Origin: a virus
IMG/VR virus record: IMGVR_UViG_3300045988_138996
Span: 160,001 to 224,000 of that record
Length of the DNA stretch: 64,000 nt
Strand: one strand, 5' to 3'
Both the position numbers and the translations under genes were made by a program. A model generated the notes under the pieces. It ran no database searches. It had not been told where the DNA came from and was given only the letters and a program-made list of their open reading frames with translations. Shown here in pieces: positions 41,655 to 62,086 of this stretch (position 1 is its first letter; each line of letters opens with the position of its first letter).

Positions 41655-42215
41655 TATTAAGGAGCGAGCGTCAGCGAGCGACTGTATATTATTTTATATA
41701 TAGTAAGCCCGAGCGAAGCGAGGGCGTATATATCAAGTTCTCTGTGTACTCTCTTCTAAAGAGAGTAGTTTTGTATTTATTTAGTATAGTCTAAGGCGAG
41801 CGAAGCGAGCCGTATATTCTTTGTTTACTTTCTTTTTAAGAAAGTAATTATGTTTATTATTTATTATTAGTAGTTCTCTGCTGTCTCTCTTGTAAAGAGA
41901 GTAGTTATATTATTAGTATTTTATATGTATAGATTCTCTGTTATCTCTCTTATCAAGAGAGTAATTAGTTATTTTATATATATGTATCATAATAGTATTA
42001 ACGCAGCGAGCGAAGCGAGCGGAGTATGTATTATGTAGTATGTAGTTATTCCCGAAGAACGAGGAACGCTAGTGACGAGTGAATTGTAGTGTCCTAGCGT
42101 AAGCGACGATCATAAGAGTATATATTGTATATTATATATAGGGCGAGCGAGGGGAGCGTCAGCGACCGGAGCGAGCATAGTATTATTATATAATATATTA
42201 TAGGGAGCATAGCGA
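41655..42215. repeat. GC-box repeats (GAGCGAAGCGAG-type) each followed by GTAT(A/G)TAT
   Basis: GCCC-GAGCGAAGCGA-GGGC-GTATAT (41707), GGC-GAGCGAAGCGA-GCC-GTATAT (41795), CGC-A-GCGAGCGAAGCGA-GCG-GAGTATGTAT (42002). Degenerate copies at 41661, 42141 and 42203. Confidence 0.6.
41735..41966. repeat. four copies of a 35-nt unit with a CTCTCTT-NNN-AAGAGAG hairpin
   Basis: Hairpins at 41747-67, 41825-47 (variant ACTTTCTT-TTT-AAGAAAGT), 41885-901 and 41945-61. Flanked by TTCTCTG... upstream and TA(G/A)TT downstream. Confidence 0.65.
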
Positions 42216-43483
42216 CCGGAGTATATATATAGTCTTATAGGAGCTAGATAGGCCAATAAGGATTGGTGAATATTTAGTATATCGTGATATAGTATATCGT
42301 ATTATACTATAGTAGTATATAGTAAATATGTGAGATCCTTATTTACAGTAAAAAGAAAAATTCGGCCTTGAAAATTTACAGGTCGTAGACCGGAAAATTT
42401 TAAGTATTTTCCGCCCGGGGATATCTATATCATATATATAGTATAAGAAGGAACGTAGTGACTGGTAGATATATATTATGTTAATAATATAGTATATTTT
42501 CTGCCGTCGGTATTTTGTTAAAAGAGAGACTACTATATATAATAATTTCCGCCTAGGATATTATGGTTTATATATAATATGTTTTTAGTTAATGTTTTTC
42601 CTGTATGCATACGCATACAGATATTAAAAACTTTTAGGGTGGGATATCTTATAATAATATTGAACGTCAGTGAAATGTTATTATAGATTTAAATCTATAT
42701 TAGATATAATTTTAATGAGAGCTATTAATGTGAAGAATAGGGAGCGCCGCGAATCTATTCAGCTATTAAAATTCTTAGTCGACACGATAGTATAGTATGG
42801 TAGAGATCGTGTCGATAGGTTACGAGTGCTAACGAGTTATATGTAGAATTCGTTGAGATGAAGGATGTTATCGATGAGCCCGCGAAGAGAAACATCGTTC
42901 TTTAGAATTCGTAACAATATATCTAATGCGTTTGTGTATTATCAATATATATCAAGAAAATATATACTGATGTGTTTGAGTGAAGCTTGCGAAAAGAAAA
43001 ACGCAATCAATTTTTATATATCGTAACGAAGCCCGTAAGGGTTCGTATTAGTATTATATATAGCTTATGAATATAAGCGTATGTATATAACTATTAATAC
43101 GAATTATACCAAAGTATTAGAAGTTAGTAAGCGTCTAATAAGTAGGTGGTTTTTGTTTGGGATCCGCCGTTATCTTAGTATTTCATTTACTAGCTAAGGT
43201 ATTTAAAAGTCCCTTGCGTTTATTTTAGTCGAGTTATTTTATATATAATATTATATATAATAATAACGAAGAGCCATTACTGTTAAGAATGGATAGTAGA
43301 CGAAATTGGGAACGGGCCCCAATAATAGTTATTATATTCTCTTAGAGAATATATAACGTCAATGGTTCGTCGTGTACGATCCTTTTCGAGTTTCGCAGAA
43401 AATTACGTAAGTAAGAGTTTGTAGCATTTGTAAAATGGGACAACATTTTGTTAGTATTCTCGCTATGTTACACATAGCGACAC

Positions 43484-43513: not shown

Positions 43514-43608
43514 GTTATATATTGTTTACTAAAAGCGATGAACTACGTTCATCGGTATATTACTCATGTTTAAGTATAAGTTATTAATAATTTAAAAAAA
43601 TAATTCAG

Positions 43609-43633
43609 AAAATAAAAAAGACCCCGAAGGGCC
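43609..43633 (-). terminator. minus-strand rho-independent terminator
   Basis: On the - strand, GGCCC-TTCG-GGGTC (UUCG loop, one G.U pair) followed by TTTTTTATTTT. Confidence 0.55.
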
Positions 43634-43811
43634 ATTTTTATATAAGTATTTTTTTAATATTCAAAGCGGTGCGAAGCGAAGCGTAGCAAACCGTGGAGCG
43701 TAGCGGAACGGTGAACTGCGTTCACCGGTATATTACTCTGTTTAGATACGTCGTTAATCAAAAATAAAAAAATATTTTTTATTTAATTCTATTATATATA
43801 TAACAAGCAAT

Positions 43812-43853
43812 AAAAAAAACAGCCTCAGATTTTTATGACCTGGACTGTTTTGT
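43812..43853. terminator. bidirectional terminator-like hairpin
   Basis: An A8 run, an imperfect ACAGCC...GGACTGT stem, then TTTTGTGTG. Confidence 0.35.
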
Positions 43854-44007
43854 GTGTGTAAAAACGGAAGCGGTGTAACGTAGTTACACCGGTATATTAC
43901 TCAAGTTAGGTATATCATTAATCAATTTTGTAAAAATAATTAAATATTCATTATTAATGCATAAAGTAAGACAGGGGTATTTTTAAGTTAAAAAAATAGA
44001 AAAAATT

Positions 44008-44035: not shown

Positions 44036-44470
44036 ATTTTAATGTCTGGTTTAGTATATATAGGAAACAATAAAACATAATATACAGAATATGTATATTT
44101 ATGAATACGAGCTTTTTTCAAAAGCGTTCGCCTACCATAGCTTACTCCGAAAAGTTTAAATGAAACGTCGTAAGCGTACTAGTGACGCGGGTTTTTAATA
44201 ATTTTATATTTTAAAATTATGTAGGGTTAGGAACGAGGTATATAAAAATTGCTCCCTTAATAGTTCTTATTTATCTCTTATATATACTATATATATAATA
44301 TAAAAGGATTATTTTTTTATATAGTCCGCCGTCTCCTCACGAGCGCCAACCTGAGTTATATTTAGCTATATATATAGGTATTGCTATAGCTTTATTTAGC
44401 TCTGTATATACGGCTAGACCTATTTAAAACATCTTACCTGTATAGGTAGCTCCCTTGGGGGGTGGGGGGA

Positions 44471-44759
44471 GTCCGCAACACTCTCAAGTTTGTTATTTTT
44501 AAGTAAAAACTAGTAAAAATTGTTTATGGCTATTAAAACGATTAAGAGTTGGTAACACTCTGTATTTGCTGTTAATTAACTAAAAATGGCTGTTTTTATA
44601 TATACAGCTATTAAAATCATTTTAAGTCCGCAACACTCATAATGTCTCCCTTTTTACACAAAAACAGCTTATTTTGCAATAACTAAGTTTCGTATTTTTG
44701 CAGTATTTTATAATATTTTAGTTTATGACTATTAATATCTATTAAGTCCACAACATTCA
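44471..44759 (+). repeat. four iteron-like direct repeats (GTCCGCAACACTC core)
   Basis: GTCCGCAACACTC at 44471 and 44627, GTTGGTAACACTC at 44548, GTCCACAACATTC at 44747. Three of them are preceded by (G)CTATTAA(A/T)A..ATT(TT)AAG. Spacing is 77, 79 and 120 nt. Confidence 0.6.
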
Positions 44760-44803
44760 TAAAAACGTCTTAAATAGTTAAAAACAATATATTTTCATAT
44801 TAA

Positions 44804-44831: not shown

Positions 44832-45264
44832 ATAATATATTTAATTAATATAGTGTATTGCTATATATATCATTAATCTGTTATAGCAACTTTATTAGTA
44901 TTTAATAGCTATATATAGTCATATATATAGTTTATTGTTATATTATATATATGGTTTAATATATATTGTCATATATATGTATATAGTTAACGTATTATAT
45001 TATAGTTTATCATTAGTATAGTATTAACAGTTATATTAGTATTTAGTATTATGTTATTAGTAGTATTAGTGTTATTATATATATAGTAAGAGTAATAATA
45101 AAGAGAAACTATTAAATGAAAAGATGCGGGCGATTTTGTATATTGTTTTTTATATCAATCTAATGAATTGCCGCATTTGATTTTTATATGTATGATATAT
45201 TTATCAGCATATGATTAATAACTGTATATGGTTTTATATATATAAGGCTAATGTCATTAAGTAC

Positions 45265-45327: not shown

Positions 45328-45528
45328 ATGAATCAATATTTAGTCGATGCTATTGTCGATCATGATGATTGGATACGGTATATTAGACCAAGGAAGATGT
45401 GTTATTCTGACGATATAAGCGAGAAATATAACCTAGATAATATAATCGTAGCATATAGCAGGAATTATTATAAATATAGTGCCGAATTATATTTACAGTA
45501 TTTAATGTATTTAATGGTAATAGAATGA
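45328..45528 (+). CDS. YY-tail small protein family member
   Basis: 66 aa. C-terminus ...YKYSAELYLQYLMYLMVIE. Confidence 0.55.
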   Translation: MNQYLVDAIVDHDDWIRYIRPRKMCYSDDISEKYNLDNIIVAYSRNYYKYSAELYLQYLMYLMVIE

Positions 45529-45529
45529 T

Positions 45530-45742
45530 ATGAATAAATTAAAGCTTTTTGAAAAAATAATGTATAGCTTTTTTAATATAATTAATAAAGACAATAAATA
45601 TGAAAAATATTATAGCATTAATAATAATAATGGTTATGATATTCTTAAAAAACATTTTATTTATGTCTATGAAAATGAAAAATATAATGCCAACGTATAC
45701 TATTATTACTATATATGGTTAATTATATTGGTAAAAATATGA
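45530..45742 (+). CDS. YY-tail small protein family member
   Basis: 70 aa. C-terminus ...YNANVYYYYYIWLIILVKI. Confidence 0.55.
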   Translation: MNKLKLFEKIMYSFFNIINKDNKYEKYYSINNNNGYDILKKHFIYVYENEKYNANVYYYYYIWLIILVKI

Positions 45743-45939
45743 ATAAGAATGAATTAATCGATAATATTATCGACGCAGCCTGGATAATAAAAACAAAATA
45801 TCCAAAATATATGCCGTCTAGAAATTTTCATATAGTCGACGTTGTTACAAGAATTACTGTATATAGTAATGGTAGTCAAGAAATTAACGGCATGATATAT
45901 TATAGTTATTGGTTAGTGTTAGGGTGTTTATATGAATAG
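45739..45939 (+). CDS. YY-tail small protein family member
   Basis: Start at ATG 45739 (MNKNELIDNI). C-terminus ...INGMIYYSYWLVLGCLYE. Confidence 0.55.
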   Translation: MNKNELIDNIIDAAWIIKTKYPKYMPSRNFHIVDVVTRITVYSNGSQEINGMIYYSYWLVLGCLYE

Positions 45940-46141
45940 TGATGTACCATTTATTATTACTGTTAAAGCATCTAATATATATGATGATAATGATAGATAT
46001 AGTCTTATTAATAATCTTAAAGATAAAGAGCTAATAAATTATATAACAAAGCCAATAGTATTTATAAATAGTCTTGGCGGCGCATATACTGCTAGGTTAT
46101 ATTATAATTACTATATATATCTATGTGTATTTAGGATATAA
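45932..46141 (+). CDS. YY-tail small protein family member
   Basis: 69 aa. C-terminus ...YTARLYYNYYIYLCVFRI. Confidence 0.55.
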   Translation: MNSDVPFIITVKASNIYDDNDRYSLINNLKDKELINYITKPIVFINSLGGAYTARLYYNYYIYLCVFRI

Positions 46142-46143
46142 AT

Positions 46144-46311
46144 ATGAATCAAGAATTGTATCACGCAATAGAAAGATATATACATAATATAGAATGGTAT
46201 AGTGTTTTCGATATATATTTAATACATTTAAATCTTAATATCGATATATATCGTTATGGAACGAATGTACTTTTATATAAATATTATTTGTATATAATGA
46301 TCGAGATCTAA
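46144..46311 (+). CDS. YY-tail small protein family member (55 aa, not in ORF track)
   Basis: My own translation: MNQELYHAIERYIHNIEWYSVFDIYLIHLNLNIDIYRYGTNVLLYKYYLYIMIEI. It fills an otherwise empty gap. Confidence 0.5.
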   Translation: MNQELYHAIERYIHNIEWYSVFDIYLIHLNLNIDIYRYGTNVLLYKYYLYIMIEI

Positions 46312-46323
46312 TAAGGATAATAT

Positions 46324-46518
46324 ATGGGTATAAAATTGATCTTAGAAGATATTCAAGATAATATGTCGTGCGGTTATTGTTATCCTAGAAAAATTATAAG
46401 TCATTATTATATTCATAATAATCTTATGATTACCGTAGGCGATAATATATTTTATTATGCCGGCGATTATAAATATTATTATTTTTATATATGGTTAATG
46501 ACATATGGGGTCTTATAA
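46324..46518 (+). CDS. YY-tail small protein family member
   Basis: 64 aa. C-terminus ...GDYKYYYFYIWLMTYGVL. Confidence 0.55.
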   Translation: MGIKLILEDIQDNMSCGYCYPRKIISHYYIHNNLMITVGDNIFYYAGDYKYYYFYIWLMTYGVL

Positions 46519-46730
46519 TGAAACATAAAATAACATTTTCTAAATTTAAAGGATTTAATCGCATCGTCGAACTAGAAAACTTACAAGATGCTATCAATGA
46601 CTTTATTAGACAAAATAAAGGTCTTAAAGTATGTAATGTTTGTTATAAAGACGATGCATTAATCGGACATATTAAAGATTTAGACGATTTTGACTACGGT
46701 ATGATCATTATTAAAGAAGTAGTATCATGA
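46518..46730 (+). CDS. hypothetical protein
   Basis: Start at ATG 46518, a TAATG overlap with the upstream stop. 70 aa with no YY tail. Confidence 0.5.
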   Translation: MKHKITFSKFKGFNRIVELENLQDAINDFIRQNKGLKVCNVCYKDDALIGHIKDLDDFDYGMIIIKEVVS

Positions 46731-46912
46731 TTAAAATAACAAATGAAAAATTATCTGACGCTATTTTTAAATATGATTATTATGATCCTGATGATCTTAT
46801 TCAATATTTAACGTGTGAAAATTTCGAAGAAAAATATCATACATATATGTATACTAAAGGCGAATGTTATTACTATTATTATCTATCATTAGGATTAATT
46901 TGTAATCTATAA
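46727..46912 (+). CDS. YY-tail small protein family member
   Basis: 61 aa. C-terminus ...KGECYYYYYLSLGLICNL. Confidence 0.55.
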   Translation: MIKITNEKLSDAIFKYDYYDPDDLIQYLTCENFEEKYHTYMYTKGECYYYYYLSLGLICNL

Positions 46913-46934
46913 AAGCGAACATATATCCGCTTTT
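46911..46934 (+). terminator. weak (possibly bidirectional) terminator
   Basis: AAAAGCG-AACATATATC-CGCTTTT. Confidence 0.4.
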
Positions 46935-46971
46935 AAGAATTTATGCATTTTAATAATAATAATGGAATTTT

Positions 46972-47000
46972 TTGTAAAAAAAAGTATTTTATGGTATAAT
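46972..47000 (+). promoter_or_regulatory. sigma-70/sigma-A-type promoter with extended -10
   Basis: -35 TTGTAA (46972-77), 17-nt spacer ending in TG, -10 TATAAT (46995-47000). 13 nt upstream of ATG 47014. Confidence 0.6.
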
Positions 47001-47013
47001 AAAAGGTTATAAT

Positions 47014-47331
47014 ATGTTATATATACAATTGAATAAAGACGGAGCTGTCTTAGATATACTTAGGCAATTAAAAAGAAATTATGGAAAAATTTGTTTAAGC
47101 GGTGCTATTATCGATCACGTCGGTAATATCCCAGATCATTATAATAATTTTAATGTCGTTAAAATAATGCTTACTTGTAGTTTATTAAAAGTATTAGGTA
47201 AAAAATATAGTGAATATCAAATGGTATTATATGAATATACTTTTAATATTAAAGATAATCGTATCAGTTATGATAACGATACAGCCGGGAGTATTATTAA
47301 AGCATTAGTCGATATGATGATCGACGACTAA
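47014..47331 (+). CDS. hypothetical protein
   Basis: 105-aa ORF downstream of the sigma-70-like promoter. Confidence 0.55.
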   Translation: MLYIQLNKDGAVLDILRQLKRNYGKICLSGAIIDHVGNIPDHYNNFNVVKIMLTCSLLKVLGKKYSEYQMVLYEYTFNIKDNRISYDNDTAGSIIKALVDMMIDD

Positions 47332-47344
47332 TAAGGAGAATAAT

Positions 47345-47575
47345 ATGACTGAAAAAGAAGCAATTATTATCGAAGAAATTTACTTAATAGAAAATTCATT
47401 AAAAGAAAAAACATTAAATTATTTTCTAGACAAATATTATAATGGTAAAGCCTTAGAAAAATTACAACCATTCCAACGAGAAAAAATTTTAAAATGGATG
47501 CAATCGCGTGTTGAGGACGAAGAAATGAATGATGATCGTATTAGCAGCTGGGCTTTAGAACATGGATACTTCTAA
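47345..47575 (+). CDS. hypothetical protein
   Basis: 76-aa ORF after AAGGAG. Confidence 0.55.
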   Translation: MTEKEAIIIEEIYLIENSLKEKTLNYFLDKYYNGKALEKLQPFQREKILKWMQSRVEDEEMNDDRISSWALEHGYF

Positions 47576-47810
47576 TCGCAACAAAAAGCTATTAGCAACT
47601 ATATTAAATAAAACTTTAGATTTATATAGTATTCGTAAAAACCACAAATATTTTACTCAATCAAATTTTATTATTGAAGATGTTCTTAGTAAGCATATAA
47701 TATTTTTTGACGGCACAAATAAGTACAGTGGTCTTATATATTATCATTATTATATTTGTTTAAGTATAATGCCAGATTTAACAGAAGTTCCTGACTTGTT
47801 AGAAGAATAA
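47562..47810 (+). CDS. YY-tail small protein family member
   Basis: 82 aa. ...KYSGLIYYHYYICLSIM plus an acidic tail. Confidence 0.55.
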   Translation: MDTSNRNKKLLATILNKTLDLYSIRKNHKYFTQSNFIIEDVLSKHIIFFDGTNKYSGLIYYHYYICLSIMPDLTEVPDLLEE

Positions 47811-47811
47811 T

Positions 47812-48030
47812 ATGGTAACTAATAAATTATTAGATAAAGTATTTCTCCCGTTACAAATAAGGATTAGCATCGACATATTTAATGAAGATCTTGAGCGTTT
47901 TTTGATGGAAGAAAATGCTAAAAAATTATTTCGTGTATATACTTTGACTAATAAGAATCAAAAATATGATGATTATTATGGATATTATCTATATTTAATA
48001 CTTTGTTCTGAAATAGAAAGAATATATTAA
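47812..48030 (+). CDS. YY-tail small protein family member
   Basis: 72 aa. ...YDDYYGYYLYLILCSEIERIY. Confidence 0.55.
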   Translation: MVTNKLLDKVFLPLQIRISIDIFNEDLERFLMEENAKKLFRVYTLTNKNQKYDDYYGYYLYLILCSEIERIY

Positions 48031-48239
48031 TGAATAATAATTATTTAGATAGACTTATCGAATATATGACAATTCAAGCTCAAAGACGTTTTAATGTTAG
48101 AAATGTTAACTATGGATCATTATATAATTTAACGAATCCAAAAGTTGTGTTTGCATATAAAGTCTATCAAAATAAAGAAGGAGTGTCATATAGTGCCAAC
48201 ATATATTATTGGTATTATCTATGTTTAACAGTATTATGA
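48030..48239 (+). CDS. YY-tail small protein family member
   Basis: 69 aa. ...SYSANIYYWYYLCLTVL. Confidence 0.55.
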   Translation: MNNNYLDRLIEYMTIQAQRRFNVRNVNYGSLYNLTNPKVVFAYKVYQNKEGVSYSANIYYWYYLCLTVL

Positions 48240-48520
48240 GTAAGAATTATGCTATCATATATTATATATACGAAGAAGAATTTAGATATGGTGTTATTCT
48301 TATCGATGATAATTATAACAATGCACTATATCGAGCATATTATGAACTATTAAATTCTTTTAAATCATACTATATATCAGTAATAGAATCCAACGATCTA
48401 AATTATTTAGAAAATATGGAAATTGCATATGACGATCCTAGTTATTATGCTGGTGAGACTCAAAAAGCTATTGAAGAATGTAATATTACACAAATAATTA
48501 AGGATCTGAAATATGAGTAA
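48236..48520 (+). CDS. long-form YY-family protein
   Basis: ATGA overlap start at 48236. ...NNALYRAYYELLNSFKSYY plus a C-terminal extension. Confidence 0.5.
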   Translation: MSKNYAIIYYIYEEEFRYGVILIDDNYNNALYRAYYELLNSFKSYYISVIESNDLNYLENMEIAYDDPSYYAGETQKAIEECNITQIIKDLKYE

Positions 48521-48713
48521 CAGTTTATTACAATATAAGCTTATAGTATTTAATAAAATTAAAATAAGAGGTAATTCTACATATATATATTTAGATCCTA
48601 CTATTAATATTTCAAGAATATATAGTTTTTATATGAAAAATAGTCAGTATTATAAATTACATTATATATATTTATATTGGATTAATTTAAATTTGGTTGA
48701 TAAATATGACTGA
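48513..48713 (+). CDS. YY-tail small protein family member
   Basis: 66 aa. ...YYKLHYIYLYWINLNLVDKYD. Confidence 0.55.
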   Translation: MSNSLLQYKLIVFNKIKIRGNSTYIYLDPTINISRIYSFYMKNSQYYKLHYIYLYWINLNLVDKYD

Positions 48714-48891
48714 TAAAATAACAAAAGAATTAAATAAATTTGTTGATTCCGTATGCCAGAATAGATATAAAATTGAATATTTATATTTTAAATTGTCATC
48801 TATTCCATCATTTATGTTGCATAACCGAGGCAAGTATAAATATATATATTGGTATTACGTATATAAGTTAATGTTAATAACTAAGATATAA
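48706..48891 (+). CDS. YY-tail small protein family member
   Basis: Start at ATG 48706 (MTDKITKEL). ...KYKYIYWYYVYKLMLITKI. Confidence 0.55.
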   Translation: MTDKITKELNKFVDSVCQNRYKIEYLYFKLSSIPSFMLHNRGKYKYIYWYYVYKLMLITKI

Positions 48892-48893
48892 TT

Positions 48894-49106
48894 ATGATAA
48901 ATAAAAAAGTAGAAAAAATTTTACATATTTTTACAGAAGATATGTGTCATCGCGACGAAATAGAACCACACAGCGAACCATATTTAATGTTATATAATAC
49001 AGACGTTATATTTGATTCACCTGATTGTCCACATTCACATTATTATTACTATAGTTATTATATTTATGTGTTAATGGTTAAAGAAAGAGTGTTATATGAA
49101 ATATAA
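48894..49106 (+). CDS. YY-tail small protein family member
   Basis: 70 aa. ...HSHYYYYSYYIYVLMVKE. Confidence 0.55.
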   Translation: MINKKVEKILHIFTEDMCHRDEIEPHSEPYLMLYNTDVIFDSPDCPHSHYYYYSYYIYVLMVKERVLYEI

Positions 49107-49139
49107 AATACTATCATTAAAAATTTGTGGAAAAATAAA

Positions 49140-49475
49140 ATGATCGATCAACGAATAGTAAAAGAATATTTTAATAGTAACGACTATGTCGTCGTAGAAT
49201 ATCATTTCGAAGGAGATAGGATACGTTGTAATATTGAAAAACGTTCTGGCGACACATATCTCAACAAACTATATTGGGCTTATTATAATTTATTATCGTT
49301 AAGCCATATCAATCGTTATCGTTATTCTATTAATAGTATAGCTAATCTTAGATATTTACAAGTACGATTAAAATATGATGATGATACAACCGACGCTAAA
49401 GAAGAACTTAAAGAAGAAATTGTAGGCGAAGATATTATTAACGTACTACGTGAAGTACGTCGTGGTGAATTATGA
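49140..49475 (+). CDS. long-form YY-family protein
   Basis: Start at ATG 49140 (MIDQRIV). ...NKLYWAYYNLLSLSHINRY plus a C-terminal extension. Confidence 0.5.
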   Translation: MIDQRIVKEYFNSNDYVVVEYHFEGDRIRCNIEKRSGDTYLNKLYWAYYNLLSLSHINRYRYSINSIANLRYLQVRLKYDDDTTDAKEELKEEIVGEDIINVLREVRRGEL

Positions 49476-49693
49476 TTAGTAAACAAAAAAGAGCTGTGTC
49501 GATAACAGATCGAGGCTCTCGTATATATGATCGCTTTGCAAAATATGATATTATATATAATCTTAAAATAATTACTAGATTATCAGCAAAGTGCGCATAT
49601 AAAGACGATGAATATAAGTTTAGTGCTTGTATATATTATAGTTATTATGTAATTTTGCACTTGCTTGATGAAAGATATAAGAGGAGAGGATAA
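49472..49693 (+). CDS. YY-tail small protein family member
   Basis: 73 aa. ...KFSACIYYSYYVILHLLDERYKRRG. Confidence 0.55.
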   Translation: MISKQKRAVSITDRGSRIYDRFAKYDIIYNLKIITRLSAKCAYKDDEYKFSACIYYSYYVILHLLDERYKRRG

Positions 49694-49953
49694 TGGCTTT
49701 TAATATTATTAAATATAATAAAACCAGAGATGACGTATATGTATATATACAAAAGATGCCGGGCATCTATAATAAAAAATTAAGTTTGTATTTTGCATAT
49801 ATGTATAGTATCTTCGACTTTAGATTTCGATATAGTATTTTTAGAAGTATCGATGTTCAGGATTATACTAATTTTAGAGCATTAGACAAAGATGCTAATC
49901 CTAAAGATACTGATATTTTAAATATATTAAAAAGTAAAAATTATGAAATATAA
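49693..49953 (+). CDS. long-form YY-family protein
   Basis: 86 aa. ...LSLYFAYMYSIFDFRFRY plus an extension. Confidence 0.5.
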   Translation: MAFNIIKYNKTRDDVYVYIQKMPGIYNKKLSLYFAYMYSIFDFRFRYSIFRSIDVQDYTNFRALDKDANPKDTDILNILKSKNYEI

Positions 49954-50215
49954 AATCTTATTAAGAGAAACGCCAGTCGAAGAATATGCTCATGAATTAT
50001 TCTACGATACTTTTAATAGTAATTTTAATAGCTCTTTATATGTAACATATTGGCTATTTATTTTATATCCAAAAAGTAGTGTATACTTAATTAGCATTCC
50101 TAAAATAAAATGGTTAACAGAACAAACGTTACCACATTATATATTCATGGAAGAGCTAGAAAAACATAATGTATTAAGTATTATAGAAAGGAATAAAGAT
50201 GAATCTGTTAAGTGA
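49943..50215 (+). CDS. long-form YY-family protein
   Basis: 90 aa. ...SSLYVTYWLFILYP plus an extension. Confidence 0.5.
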   Translation: MKYKILLRETPVEEYAHELFYDTFNSNFNSSLYVTYWLFILYPKSSVYLISIPKIKWLTEQTLPHYIFMEELEKHNVLSIIERNKDESVK

Positions 50216-50570
50216 AACAGAACAAAAGCTTAAAGAACTTAATCTGACATTAGATGATATTCAGTTTGTTATGTGTACCGAATCTGAATACGGCAGCGAT
50301 TATATATTTATGAACAAAGATACATTTGTTAAAAATGCTCGATCTGTTATCTATGACAATGGATACGGCTCTCAAGAAATCAAAAATAATCTTACAGTTT
50401 ATACAAGAGATTATATTATTTACCGATTTGAATATGACGGCGCAGAATGCTGGAAATATGTTCCGACAATTACTGGTTTAGATCCATTTTTACAAGACGA
50501 AAAACGTTGGAAAGAATTTAAATTTGAATCGAAGGATTATTATAATAATGAAGAACAAATTCCGTTTTAA
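50199..50570 (+). CDS. hypothetical protein
   Basis: 123-aa ORF in the same-strand array. Confidence 0.55.
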   Translation: MNLLSETEQKLKELNLTLDDIQFVMCTESEYGSDYIFMNKDTFVKNARSVIYDNGYGSQEIKNNLTVYTRDYIIYRFEYDGAECWKYVPTITGLDPFLQDEKRWKEFKFESKDYYNNEEQIPF

Positions 50571-50715
50571 AATTAATAAATGGGTCAAACTTTCGATTCC
50601 GCCAGTATTAATTCCATATTATAAATGGGCAGTATTTGAAAAGCAGAACAAAATTGGTAAAAAGAATTTTAGATTATACCACATTTATTTCTTTTCCTTA
50701 GAAAAATATTTATAA
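50548..50715 (+). CDS. possible small protein
   Basis: 55 aa from ATG 50548, overlapping the upstream gene by 23 nt. Ends ...LYHIYFFSLEKYL. Weak support. Confidence 0.3.
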   Translation: MKNKFRFKINKWVKLSIPPVLIPYYKWAVFEKQNKIGKKNFRLYHIYFFSLEKYL

Positions 50716-50762
50716 TTATAATTAAGAGAAGAAATAATTGTGGATTTTTTTGTAGGAAAAAT

Positions 50763-51065
50763 ATGAGTGGTACGTATTTTATTACATCGTATGTAGTAAA
50801 TAATCGAGGTAAGCTATCTCAATTTAAGACATATGAAATAAACAAAATGTTTTCTCATGCATTTTATTTAGCCTATTATGGTTATATTAATTACATTTGT
50901 GAAAGATATAATATTTGTATGTATCCAGAAAAAGTAATAGGTCAACGTTATGATCTAACGTTTGAACAGATAGCTTCGATGTACGATGTTGTTCATTGTA
51001 TTAAAAATAAAGAATATAGTAAAAAAATGAATTCTAAAAAACATAAGTGGTTGAAAATATTTTAG
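50763..51065 (+). CDS. long-form YY-family protein
   Basis: 100 aa. ...SHAFYLAYYGYINYICERY plus an extension. Confidence 0.5.
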   Translation: MSGTYFITSYVVNNRGKLSQFKTYEINKMFSHAFYLAYYGYINYICERYNICMYPEKVIGQRYDLTFEQIASMYDVVHCIKNKEYSKKMNSKKHKWLKIF

Positions 51066-51075
51066 GAGGTATATT

Positions 51076-51378
51076 ATGGGTCATACATTAAAACACAACA
51101 TCGAAGAAACTGGCCGCATCATTAACAGTATCGATATTAATCAATTTAATATTGATCGTCGTAACTATTATATCGAACAAGTAGAATTTACTGATCAAGG
51201 TATATTTCCGATGATTCATTTTGTTATTAGAAATGGTAAAACTAACGCAGTTGATCATCGGTGTGGTACTTTACGAAAGATACCAAATGCCAATAAATAT
51301 GAATATCATGACGGTACTGTTAAAATGTATGATGGATTAATCTGGGAATTTTTAGAAAAAGCAGGAATTATCATATGA
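51076..51378 (+). CDS. hypothetical protein
   Basis: 100-aa ORF after AGGAGG. Confidence 0.55.
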   Translation: MGHTLKHNIEETGRIINSIDINQFNIDRRNYYIEQVEFTDQGIFPMIHFVIRNGKTNAVDHRCGTLRKIPNANKYEYHDGTVKMYDGLIWEFLEKAGIII

Positions 51379-51593
51379 ATTATGAAGAATACTATAATAT
51401 TTGTAATTTTGCTCAAAAATTTTATGAAAACGATCCTGAGTTTTTACCGACAAATAATATTCTTGACATATGGAGAGCTCAGATAAAAAGACATAATGTT
51501 ATCAGCGATGATTTTAATGCTTTATTCTATTATGAGTATATAATGTATTTAACAGGAATTCGTTCAGAATGTTTCAAACACAAAAAGAATTAA
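51375..51593 (+). CDS. YY-tail small protein family member
   Basis: 72 aa. ...FNALFYYEYIMYLTGIRSE. Confidence 0.5.
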   Translation: MNYEEYYNICNFAQKFYENDPEFLPTNNILDIWRAQIKRHNVISDDFNALFYYEYIMYLTGIRSECFKHKKN

Positions 51594-60704: not shown

Positions 60705-61418
60705 ATGGGCTCGATATTACTTGCCGAAGAAGAAACAATTGTCCTTTCGACAATATATGATTATGTTGCACAAAACCCAACATTAAAATATAACAATATT
60801 TATTATCCTGATTCTAAGTATTCCAATATTCAAGTTAATAGAATTTATACATTAGATAATTCTATTATTGTTAATATAGAATATACAATTATAAATAATA
60901 AAAAAATAAGAGCATTCAGATTAGATCAGGATACTAATACTATTAATTTTGATGATAATATCGATCCTAAATTTATTAAAGATATTATGTTTTTACCAGG
61001 TGTCGTAAATTTTAAATTTATCGAAACATATAAAAGTAAAATTATATCAGAATTCGCTTTTCTAGTGCGAGATTGTTATCTTTTTAGAATAAATAGTGGC
61101 TATGATTTTTACTATAAATTTTTGTATATATATGCTGATAAATTTAGCGATATAAATAACGGTCCGATGTTTGGCAGTGATGTTATGTATTCGTCAGAAG
61201 AATTAGCTATTCGATTTTTAAAAAACGGATCGATATGTATTGTAGAAAATAGTAATAATTGTAAATATAATGAAAATGTAGGATTAGTACCATTATATAT
61301 AATGGAGTATTTAATGCAAGGGTATTATTTAGATGTATTACAAATTCAAAGCGATGTCAAAGAATTTAGACGACAATCAGAAGAAAACGCTAATAATTGG
61401 ATCGCTGTTAATAGATAA
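60705..61418 (+). CDS. hypothetical protein
   Basis: 237-aa ORF in the array. Confidence 0.5.
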   Translation: MGSILLAEEETIVLSTIYDYVAQNPTLKYNNIYYPDSKYSNIQVNRIYTLDNSIIVNIEYTIINNKKIRAFRLDQDTNTINFDDNIDPKFIKDIMFLPGVVNFKFIETYKSKIISEFAFLVRDCYLFRINSGYDFYYKFLYIYADKFSDINNGPMFGSDVMYSSEELAIRFLKNGSICIVENSNNCKYNENVGLVPLYIMEYLMQGYYLDVLQIQSDVKEFRRQSEENANNWIAVNR

Positions 61419-61719
61419 TAATGAATATTTCATTAATAGTATTCCTGTCGATAAAAAGACTATAGGTCAATCAACTGGATTAAAAGATAAACATGGTCAA
61501 GAAATATTTATTAACGATATTATTCATTTTAAAGCAAATTATGGTGATTTTATATTAGAATTAGCTACAGCTACTGTCGGATTCGATGAATTAAATGGAC
61601 GCCTTGCTGTTAAGATGAATGACAACATATTGGCATTATGCGACATGAATTATAGTAATGTCGAATACGAAGTATTGGGAAATATATGGGAAGGAAAGAT
61701 ACATGAACAGAAACTTTAA
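61354..61719 (+). CDS. YopX-family protein
   Basis: GQSTGLKDKHGQEIFINDIIHF ... YEVLGNIWE fits the YopX signature. Start is uncertain: 61333 or 61354, both overlapping the upstream ORF by 65-86 nt. Confidence 0.65.
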   Translation: MSKNLDDNQKKTLIIGSLLIDNNEYFINSIPVDKKTIGQSTGLKDKHGQEIFINDIIHFKANYGDFILELATATVGFDELNGRLAVKMNDNILALCDMNYSNVEYEVLGNIWEGKIHEQKL

Positions 61720-62086
61720 AGCCCGTTGTTTAAAAGATAGATCTTGGAAAACTGGTTTTTATTTGATTAAAAAGAAAGAACCATGTATTAAAGATATTAA
61801 AAATGTATGGCCGGTACATGAACAAACGATTTGTCAAAGTACTGGTTATATCGATTGTAATAAAAAAGAAATTTTTTTAGACGATTTAATTAATTTTGAA
61901 GCAACAATTAATGGCATTGAATTTAAATTAGAAAATTTGCAAGTATTATTCGATATTCCCAAAGGTAAATTAGTCTTATTCTCTGGAGACAAAACAATTG
62001 ATTTTGTAAGTCCAGATTATGAAAATCCACATTACGAAGTTGTCGGAAATATCTGGGATAACATTGCGTTACCAAAAAAGAAGTAA
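61703..62086 (+). CDS. YopX-family protein
   Basis: ATG 61703 after GGAAGGAAAG. CQSTGYIDCNKKEIFLDDLINF ... YEVVGNIWDN. Confidence 0.7.
   Translation: MNRNFKARCLKDRSWKTGFYLIKKKEPCIKDIKNVWPVHEQTICQSTGYIDCNKKEIFLDDLINFEATINGIEFKLENLQVLFDIPKGKLVLFSGDKTIDFVSPDYENPHYEVVGNIWDNIALPKKK

Follow-up and report, generated by a model that had tools for sequence, protein, structure and literature searches.

Positions 45328-51593 of the stretch studied here, a 64,000-nucleotide segment of one strand (positions 160,001 to 224,000 of IMG/VR virus record IMGVR_UViG_3300045988_138996; hereafter the window) from an uncultured phage with AT-rich DNA and a size of about 230 kb, hold a dense array of small genes. 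Our analysis shows that this array contains a lineage-specific family of small soluble alpha/beta proteins of 55-82 amino acids, with 8 certain and 4 to 7 divergent members, which carry a tyrosine-rich helix near the C-terminus. The family corresponds to no known protein family, matches no known fold, and is unprecedented in sequence and in structure. The explanation that we favour, with a probability of about one half, is a lineage-specific multigene family combining a fixed scaffold with a variable surface, whose products act on host proteins.

We count 25 credible + strand genes in the array, plus a weaker open reading frame (ORF) with a TTG start at 50524; genes are named below by the position of their first nucleotide. 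The original prediction, made from the letters of the sequence, had described here an expansion of about 20 small proteins, comprising 15 short ORFs and five longer ones. All 20 were found on the + strand at the coordinates assigned to them. The number of relatives comes down to about 12-15, the five long ORFs showing no detectable relationship to the others.

Tyrosine motif and family membership

All 15 short ORFs have tyrosines clustered towards the C-terminus. To separate the motif from base composition, a simple criterion was applied: at least 3 Tyr in a run of 6 residues located no more than 20 residues from the C-terminus. With this criterion, 14 of the 18 array proteins of 85 amino acids or less were positive, against 2.86 ± 1.46 after shuffling the same 18 proteins (maximum 8 in 2000 shuffles) and against 2 of 11 neighbouring small proteins encoded at 51.6-64 kb with a similar guanine-cytosine (GC) content. 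The Tyr content was 12.3% in the array proteins and 6.6% in these neighbours. From the excess over both controls we deduced that the motif is real and fixed in position and that composition explains neither property, in agreement with what had been proposed.

Family membership was then analyzed by composition-corrected BLAST among the array proteins, by profile-profile comparison with hhalign and by an iterative hidden Markov model (HMM) search whose threshold was set by shuffled and reversed decoys. BLAST joined 45530, 45739, 45932, 47562, 48030 and 49472, with several of the alignments extending along the entire protein. An HMM built from these six members raised none of the other candidates above shuffled decoys. 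We therefore collected 23 related loci, sorted their small proteins into orthologue sets and compared the resulting profiles. The iterative HMM search converged on 73 proteins, 45328 and 51375 included, which gives eight robust members in the window. Between these core groups hhalign values ranged from 60 to 98%, whereas unrelated small proteins of the same loci mostly remained below 10% and rarely exceeded it. The family alignment contains no conserved stretch of 7-10 residues.

We next compared a pooled profile of 259 distinct sequences with all other groups. The ten best-scoring groups (6-82%) were the seven remaining short candidates and three groups that carry the motif and occur in relatives only, while about 45 control groups, the five long ORFs included, all scored 2% or less. 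Each of the seven non-core candidates thus ranked above every control group. This ranking is partly circular because the candidates had been picked for the motif, and we therefore graded them as probable or possible. The genes 46324, 47812, 48513 and 48894 have hhalign links of 44-72% over 36-58 columns and are probable members, whereas 46144, 46727 and 48706 exhibit weak links only, of 13-29% over the motif region, and are possible divergent members (Table 1). On this sequence evidence, 45328, 45530, 45739, 45932, 47562, 48030, 49472 and 51375 form a robustly assigned paralogous family. The true paralogy that had been proposed hence stands for eight genes and is likely for 4-7 more, but does not extend to the five long ORFs. 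Likewise, the iterative HMM placed the eight core genes above decoys, and the six-member HMM placed none of the other candidates there.

Further links between individual groups are as follows. Among the robust members, 45328 has hhalign values of 85% to 45932 and 75% to 45739, and its orthologue L008_4485 retains the canonical YRYSAEIYLSYYIYL. The 45530 protein was included in alignments A1 and A2. For 47562, the contigs recorded for one orthologue (P0004) reach 230 kb, and at least 26 orthologues of 48030 are present among the database matches listed. The divergent 51375 reaches 64% to 45739 over 52 columns and was independently recovered in the search of representative proteins described below (P0138, P0141). 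Among the probable members, 46324 aligns with L001_7210, from a related locus, at 60% over 58 columns, its own HMM not rising above decoys; 47812 aligns with 48894 at 63.6% over 55 columns and is matched by the HMM of L001_7640 at 18.4 bits (decoy 11.4); the 48894 and L001_7210 groups match each other reciprocally at about 20.6 bits (decoys 13.7-15.7); and 48513 aligns with the pooled profile at 18% over 64 columns, its HMM being only marginally above decoys. Among the possible members, the 46144 HMM matches another motif-bearing protein, L009_11381, at 19.0 bits (best decoy 10.2), its orthologues having a ratio of non-synonymous to synonymous substitution rates (dN/dS) of 0.39. The 46727 HMM matches 45739 orthologues at 14.7 bits (best decoy 8.8), and the 22 orthologues of this gene have a dN/dS of 0.35. 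The 48706 group aligns with L001_7640 at 17%, and its HMM gives 14.6 bits (decoy 10.7) with one protein of the 48513 group.

The five long ORFs gave hhalign values of at most about 4% to any single core group and about 2% to the pooled profile, and on these sequence grounds the proposal that they carry the same helix is not supported. Two of them, 48236-48520 (94 amino acids) and 49140-49475 (111 amino acids), are mutual paralogs (hhalign 92.9% over 85 columns; HMM 34.5 bits versus 14.9 for the decoy) sharing an LY.AYY.L motif and an acidic C-terminal half. By these profile comparisons they are a second, smaller family within the array. The AlphaFold2 model of 49140, computed with 13 homologues, had a mean predicted local distance difference test (pLDDT) of 41 and was unusable.

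Table 1. Family members in the array and features of the upstream region (lengths in amino acids; percentages are hhalign values)
Position	Strand	Feature	Length	Motif or remark	Main evidence
45328..45528	+	robust member	66	...YKYSAELYLQYLMYLMVIE	iterative HMM via orthologues, above all decoys
45530..45742	+	robust member	70	VYYYYYIWLIILVKI	BLAST E = 5e-7 and 95.7%, both to 47562
45739..45939	+	robust member	66	modelled; alternative ATG 45715	BLAST E = 5e-8 to 47562
45932..46141	+	robust member	69	LYYNYYIYLCVFRI	94.7% to 48030, 91.7% to 49472
46144..46311	+	possible divergent member	55	LYKYYLYIMIEI	34% to pooled profile, 53 columns
46324..46518	+	probable member	64	YYYFYIWLMTYGVL	71.7% to 45530 group, 36 columns
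46727..46912	+	possible divergent member	61	CYYYYYLSLGLICNL	29% to pooled profile, motif region only
47562..47810	+	robust member	82	IYYHYYICLSIM + acidic tail	best-connected node, BLAST and hhalign
47812..48030	+	probable member	72	YYGYYLYLILCSEIERIY	71% to pooled profile
48030..48239	+	robust member	69	IYYWYYLCLTVL	94.7% to 45932, 87% to 47562
48513..48713	+	probable member	66	HYIYLYWINLNLVDKYD	44% to 45932, 36 columns
48706..48891	+	possible divergent member, weakest	61	YIYWYYVYKLMLITKI; alternative TTG 48697	6% to pooled profile
48894..49106	+	probable member	70	YYYYSYYIYVLMVKERVLYEI	54% to pooled profile
49472..49693	+	robust member	73	IYYSYYVILHLLDERYKRRG	BLAST E = 2e-5 to 45739, full length; 93.9%
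51375..51593	+	robust but divergent member	72	FYYEYIMYLTGI + basic tail	iterative HMM above decoys
45072..45088	+	promoter-like motif		TTATTATATATATAGTA	last of six copies, ~240 nucleotides before first family gene
41736-41975		direct repeat, 4 x 44 nucleotides		internal CTCTCTT..AAGAGAG hairpin	
43550-43941		direct repeat, 3 x 55 nucleotides			
44470-44785		direct repeat, 4 x 41 nucleotides		AGTCCGCAACACTC	

Predicted fold, conservation and selection

The 45739 protein was modelled with AlphaFold2 from a 26-sequence alignment, giving a compact prediction with a pLDDT of 87.3 and a predicted template modelling score of 0.71. The model consists of helices at residues 3-20, 26-29 and 33-37, a hairpin of strands 40-43 and 48-50, and a helix at 52-64; residues 51-60 have a pLDDT of about 92, this last helix being packed within the globule. 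The architecture that had been read from the sequence, namely an N-terminal helix, central strands and a C-terminal aromatic helix, is thus recovered in the model.

No match to the model was found in the PDB with Foldseek (best E = 1.4, template modelling (TM) score about 0.3), and a profile search of PDB sequences returned 0 matches at E <= 1. When 26 members were scanned, nothing appeared below E = 0.03 in Pfam-A, PHROGs v4 yielded scattered single matches only (best E = 9e-4, in 1 of the 26), and PADLOC-DB gave no match. Across the Pfam, PHROGs, PADLOC, PDB and BFVD searches, no similarity to a characterised anti-defence protein or fold was found. A BFVD entry (A0A8S5V244, Myoviridae sp. 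ctJ2i1) is 98% identical to the 45739 protein, and Foldseek retrieved from BFVD only paralogs from the same phage. An exhaustive search of 1.84 billion representative proteins recovered 24 family matches only. A word-indexed search recovered 370 proteins, and the 120 matches listed were all orthologues of six window genes, with 65-100% identity. From these outcomes we deduced that the family is confined to this phage lineage.

Over the 259 distinct sequences, the Tyr-helix motif [ILVM]-Y-Y-x-Y-[YWL]-[ILVM]-x-L is nearly invariant, together with Y24, N29 and V41. Conservation is strongest at Y54 (259 sequences), Y57 (258), L61 (253), N29 (251), Y55 (249) and Y24 (235), and position 41 is V or I in 95% of them. 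When the helix is drawn as a wheel, positions 53, 54, 55, 57, 58, 59, 61 and 64, all conserved, span about 240 degrees, only 56, 60 and 63 being variable. Conserved positions running round roughly two thirds of the helix most likely mark a hydrophobic core. The Tyr helix would then most likely be buried, forming a scaffold from amino acids with AT-rich codons, and is probably not a functional surface. The paralogs differ widely in charge, with isoelectric points (pI) of 4.5-9.6 and net charges of -6 to +7.6. Their longest uncharged hydrophobic runs are 8-15 residues, below the approximately 18 needed for a membrane segment.

Orthologue dN/dS ratios were between 0.19 and 0.64, below 1 in every group and indicative of purifying selection; the family genes therefore most likely encode expressed proteins under selection. 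The mean dN/dS was nevertheless higher in the family (0.39) than in non-family neighbours (0.23; p = 0.001). Along the sequence, the proportion of non-synonymous differences (pN) in the Tyr helix is 0.00-0.08, with a proportion of synonymous differences (pS) of 0.25-0.7, whereas a segment of about 10-20 codons, usually residues 28-48, has a pN/pS of about 1-1.3. For instance, across the 15 orthologues of 49472 the Tyr helix has a pN of 0.03-0.06 and residues 31-39 or so a pN/pS of 0.39/0.29. The family had been called diversifying, and this holds in a limited sense. The higher dN/dS, the segment with pN/pS near 1 and the varying gene content described below agree with it, the segment fitting relaxed constraint as well as positive selection.

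A separate observation concerns 47733-47760 (codons 58-66 of 47562), where, unlike in the other paralogs, pN and pS of the motif are both very low (about 0.03/0.04), suggesting either a recent gene conversion or a DNA or RNA signal that overlaps these codons. Hexamers of promoter-like sequence overlap 47741-47770.

Array organisation, upstream region and genome setting

The array genes are tightly packed. Start and stop codons overlap, or are separated by 2 nucleotides or less, at 15 of the 25 junctions between 45328 and 51569, as had been noticed. Shine-Dalgarno-like motifs precede 13 of the 26 array starts, compared with 9% of the other ATGs in the region (p = 3.5e-6). Together with dN/dS below 1 in every orthologue group, these two features support, indirectly, the proposed translation and translational coupling. 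Among relatives the gene order from 47345 to 51375 is kept, while the content between the gene-free region described below and 46727 varies from genome to genome. Complete arrays comprise 7-11 core and 5-11 peripheral copies.

Two database proteins from related contigs appear by inspection to be in-frame chimeras: P0126 joins the N-terminus of 45530 to the C-terminus of 45932, and P0129 the first residues of 47014 to 48030. Both indicate that array genes undergo recombination and that paralogs are joined by deletion. In another relative (IMGVR_UViG_3300006320_000011, L006; 10887-11210 and 15169-16940) the array is broken by elements resembling the IS607/IS605 type, in which a serine-recombinase-like ORF is followed by TnpB-like ORFs with zinc-finger motifs, all judged by eye. 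The database protein P0135 carries a 49472-like N-terminus joined to a TnpB-like C-terminus.

The 47345-47575 gene is highly conserved, encodes 76 amino acids and lies outside the family. In several relatives (L001 at 7422, L007 at 5946, L008 at 5337) the variable upstream portion of the array carries a 66-amino-acid paralog of it (...YYGGARLEDL...WALEIK..), so that families besides the Tyr-helix one duplicate within the array too. The 50199-50570 gene is the sole array gene with a significant library match (PHROG 3972, unknown function, E = 8e-15). It also has a weak excisionase-like helix-turn-helix match (E = 0.003) and the lowest dN/dS of the region, 0.07.

Upstream of the array, about 3.5 kb (approximately 41.7-45.3 kb) contain no credible ORF, and the same gap is found in the related loci L001 and L002. 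A promoter-like motif, TTATTWTATATATARTA, recurs in this stretch at 41689, 42427, 43234, 43789, 44284 and 45072, with spacings of 500-800 nucleotides. Allowing up to 2 mismatches, 15 matches were counted on both strands at eight loci (2.7 expected), several of them representing one near-palindromic site read on both strands; two weak sites, 45465 and 46404, fall inside the array. Of the 23 related loci, 11 also contain the motif, which is a candidate phage-specific promoter and whose distribution suggests that the array opens a transcription unit under its control.

The copy at 43234-43250 lies about 45 nucleotides upstream of a full-length match to the Rfam OTKONC RNA (RF03053; 43293-43458, + strand; 160.2 bits for a gathering score of 141.4). 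A literature search on OTKONC, on paralogous small early proteins of jumbo phages and on tyrosine-rich phage families returned nothing relevant. The stretch also contains the direct repeats of Table 1 and most of the terminator-like hairpins detected on both strands at 41-53 kb (12 versus 2.9 expected), and resembles a cluster of small non-coding RNAs. The DNA repeats D1, D5 and D6 fall on motif-coding gene ends.

The GC content of the window is 28-41% over 1-44 kb and 24-27% over 44-58 kb. All ORFs of at least 100 amino acids are on the + strand, except those nested within a longer + strand ORF. Genes in the first 41 kb include those for a DnaB-like helicase, a RecJ-like exonuclease, a DnaE-type polymerase and tail proteins, alongside many for large proteins without a family match. 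Contigs carrying family homologues are up to 200-235 kb long, and homologue contigs reaching 215-235 kb therefore identify a jumbo phage. Megablast searches of INPHARED phages with 45-52 kb and 30-44 kb gave no match. With tblastn, the best matches to the DnaE-type polymerase had only 31-35% identity (Moorella phage MTATph1 and Bacillus pumilus phages Taylor and Eoghan), and the phage has therefore no cultured relative. Host and prophage genome contigs scanned with the phage polymerase gave no match either. Stop-codon recoding that would split longer genes was ruled out. TAA, TAG and TGA are all used, with TAA dominant as in the large genes, so that there is no sign of recoding, and adjacent array ORFs overlap in different frames. 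We searched for a second expansion among the proteins of 100-130 amino acids encoded at 52-57 kb and found none, save one weak pair in relatives. Farther downstream, the ORFs 61333-61719 (128 amino acids) and 61658-62086 (142 amino acids) have similar ends (...YEVLGNIWEGK and ...YEVVGNIWDN) and look by eye like tandem paralogs.

Explanations weighed and comparison with known systems

At about 25% GC, the codons TAT, ATT and TTA could generate Tyr/Ile/Leu-rich stretches in unrelated or even non-coding ORFs, and such a compositional artefact would account for the six-member HMM raising no other candidate above decoys and for the weakest candidates aligning over the motif alone. It does not account for a Tyr cluster of fixed position (14 of 18 against 2.9 ± 1.5 in shuffled proteins), for twice the Tyr content of equal-GC neighbours, for the conservation of Y24, N29 and V41 outside the motif, for a confident model of 45739, or for dN/dS below 1 in all groups with normal synonymous change in the motif. 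For the eight core genes it is refuted, and we consider it the least probable explanation of all. Selection at the DNA level, whereby TAT-rich 3' ends would contain the promoter or ribosome-binding signal of the gene that follows, with the protein motif as a by-product, is also highly improbable. The D1, D5 and D6 repeats at motif-coding ends, the low pN and pS of 47562 codons 58-66 and the hexamers across that gene end would suit it. In the other groups, however, a motif pS of 0.25-0.7 with pN near zero denotes constraint on the protein, the motif residues are kept through different codons across paralogs, and residues distant from the 3' end are conserved too. Both of these explanations, compositional artefact and constraint on the DNA, are largely excluded.

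Two further alternatives concern what the Tyr helix does. As membrane-targeted miniproteins, the products would use their C-terminus as a tail anchor or interfacial helix and might serve superinfection exclusion, lysis timing, or interference with transport or division. Tyrosine and tryptophan favour membrane interfaces, the motif is uncharged and lies at or near the extreme C-terminus, and no N-terminal signal peptide was seen in the sequences inspected. Yet the hydrophobic runs of 8-15 residues are too short to cross a membrane, AlphaFold2 packs the helix in a compact globule with high confidence, and charged tails follow the helix in 47562, 49472 and 51375, all of which leaves this explanation quite unlikely. 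The helix might instead be a functional surface, mediating oligomerisation or sequestering an aromatic or nucleotide ligand between stacked tyrosines in the manner of a sponge. In a protein of 66 residues, a single helix bearing four or five conserved tyrosines may leave some of them exposed, aromatic cages are typical of nucleotide-binding sponges, and a monomer prediction is compatible with oligomers. Against this, Foldseek found no resemblance in the PDB, which includes the solved sponges Acb2, Tad1 and Tad2, and a single ligand is hard to square with a dozen or more divergent paralogs whose charge goes from -6 to +8. We regard a surface role as unlikely.

In the explanation that we favour, a host-directed multigene family, the array would probably be transcribed polycistronically from promoters in the RNA-rich gene-free stretch upstream, and its genes would be translationally coupled. 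Duplication, deletion and recombination would remodel it, mostly at the upstream end. Residues of about 28-48 and the overall charge could vary freely and so provide specificity, and the products would most likely be small binders or inhibitors of different host proteins, or of host-protein variants, for takeover or counter-defence. Several points weigh against this proposal. The early timing is drawn only from position and from analogy with other large phages. A sigma-70 promoter scan was uninformative in this AT-rich DNA (116 matches versus 98.6 expected). A central-segment pN/pS of about 1 suits relaxed constraint as well as positive selection. The putative division into scaffold and surface derives from conservation and from the periodicity of the helix rather than from the coordinates of the model, and the membership of 46144, 46727 and 48706 depends mainly on the motif used to choose them. 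The original prediction also mentioned anti-defence decoys, and nothing points specifically to a decoy mechanism. A stronger version, which we hold to be possible but doubtful, is a germline-encoded binder repertoire in which one tyrosine-core scaffold, present in 12-20 copies per genome and diversified by an arms race, would direct each copy against a different host defence or takeover target.

Small-gene accessory regions are common in large phages and usually consist of unrelated orphans. Comparable host-takeover modules of large Firmicutes phages are genes 37-60 of Bacillus phage SPO1 and the small genes of the terminal repeats in Herelleviridae (phage K, A511). The present array resembles them as a dense cluster of dozens of co-oriented small genes of unknown function beside a region of candidate promoters, apart from the replication and structural modules, with start/stop overlaps and Firmicutes-type Shine-Dalgarno sites. 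SPO1-type modules are made of mostly unrelated genes, whereas 12-15 genes of the present array are paralogs sharing a single fold, and the library, PDB and BFVD searches revealed no sequence or structural similarity.

Like anti-CRISPRs, the sponges Acb2, Tad1 and Tad2, and DNA mimics of the Ocr type, the array proteins are small orphans with a rapid turnover, clustered in an accessory region. They differ from the sponges in that the 45739 model has no fold match in the PDB, from Ocr-type mimics in not being uniformly acidic, and from anti-CRISPR loci in that no adjacent Aca-like regulator was identified, the helix-turn-helix hint in 50199 being the sole one. The pairing of a conserved scaffold with a hypervariable segment of limited extent also recalls the variable proteins of diversity-generating retroelements. 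Unlike in those systems, there is no template/variable repeat pair (repeats at 41-52 kb are at most 55 nucleotides long and 61-84% identical), the variation is between paralogs or orthologues and is not adenine-specific, and the fold is neither C-type lectin nor immunoglobulin (Ig). No reverse transcriptase was found among the approximately 20 large window proteins scanned, the window ORFs as a whole not having been systematically scanned for one.

The multigene families MGF110, MGF360 and MGF505 of African swine fever virus, which are thought to modulate host responses, offer a parallel in architecture: tandem arrays of paralogs in variable regions, with copy numbers differing between isolates and an evolution faster than that of core genes. 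The virus realm, the folds and the protein sizes are different, and the parallel is an analogy in genome architecture rather than a homology. For a phage, a single fold in a dozen or more tandem copies, with a near-frozen core, a free segment and copy-number differences between close relatives, is unusual, and the prediction is that of a compact, confidently modelled 66-residue scaffold without structural precedent. Should the proteins not bind host targets, they would still show an extremely AT-rich genome building a protein core largely from tyrosine. If the paralogs do bind different host targets, they would constitute a natural library for anti-defence and host-shutoff mechanisms and a designable miniprotein scaffold. 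A true binder repertoire would be a phage equivalent of the multigene families found in large eukaryotic DNA viruses, built on a fold not seen before.

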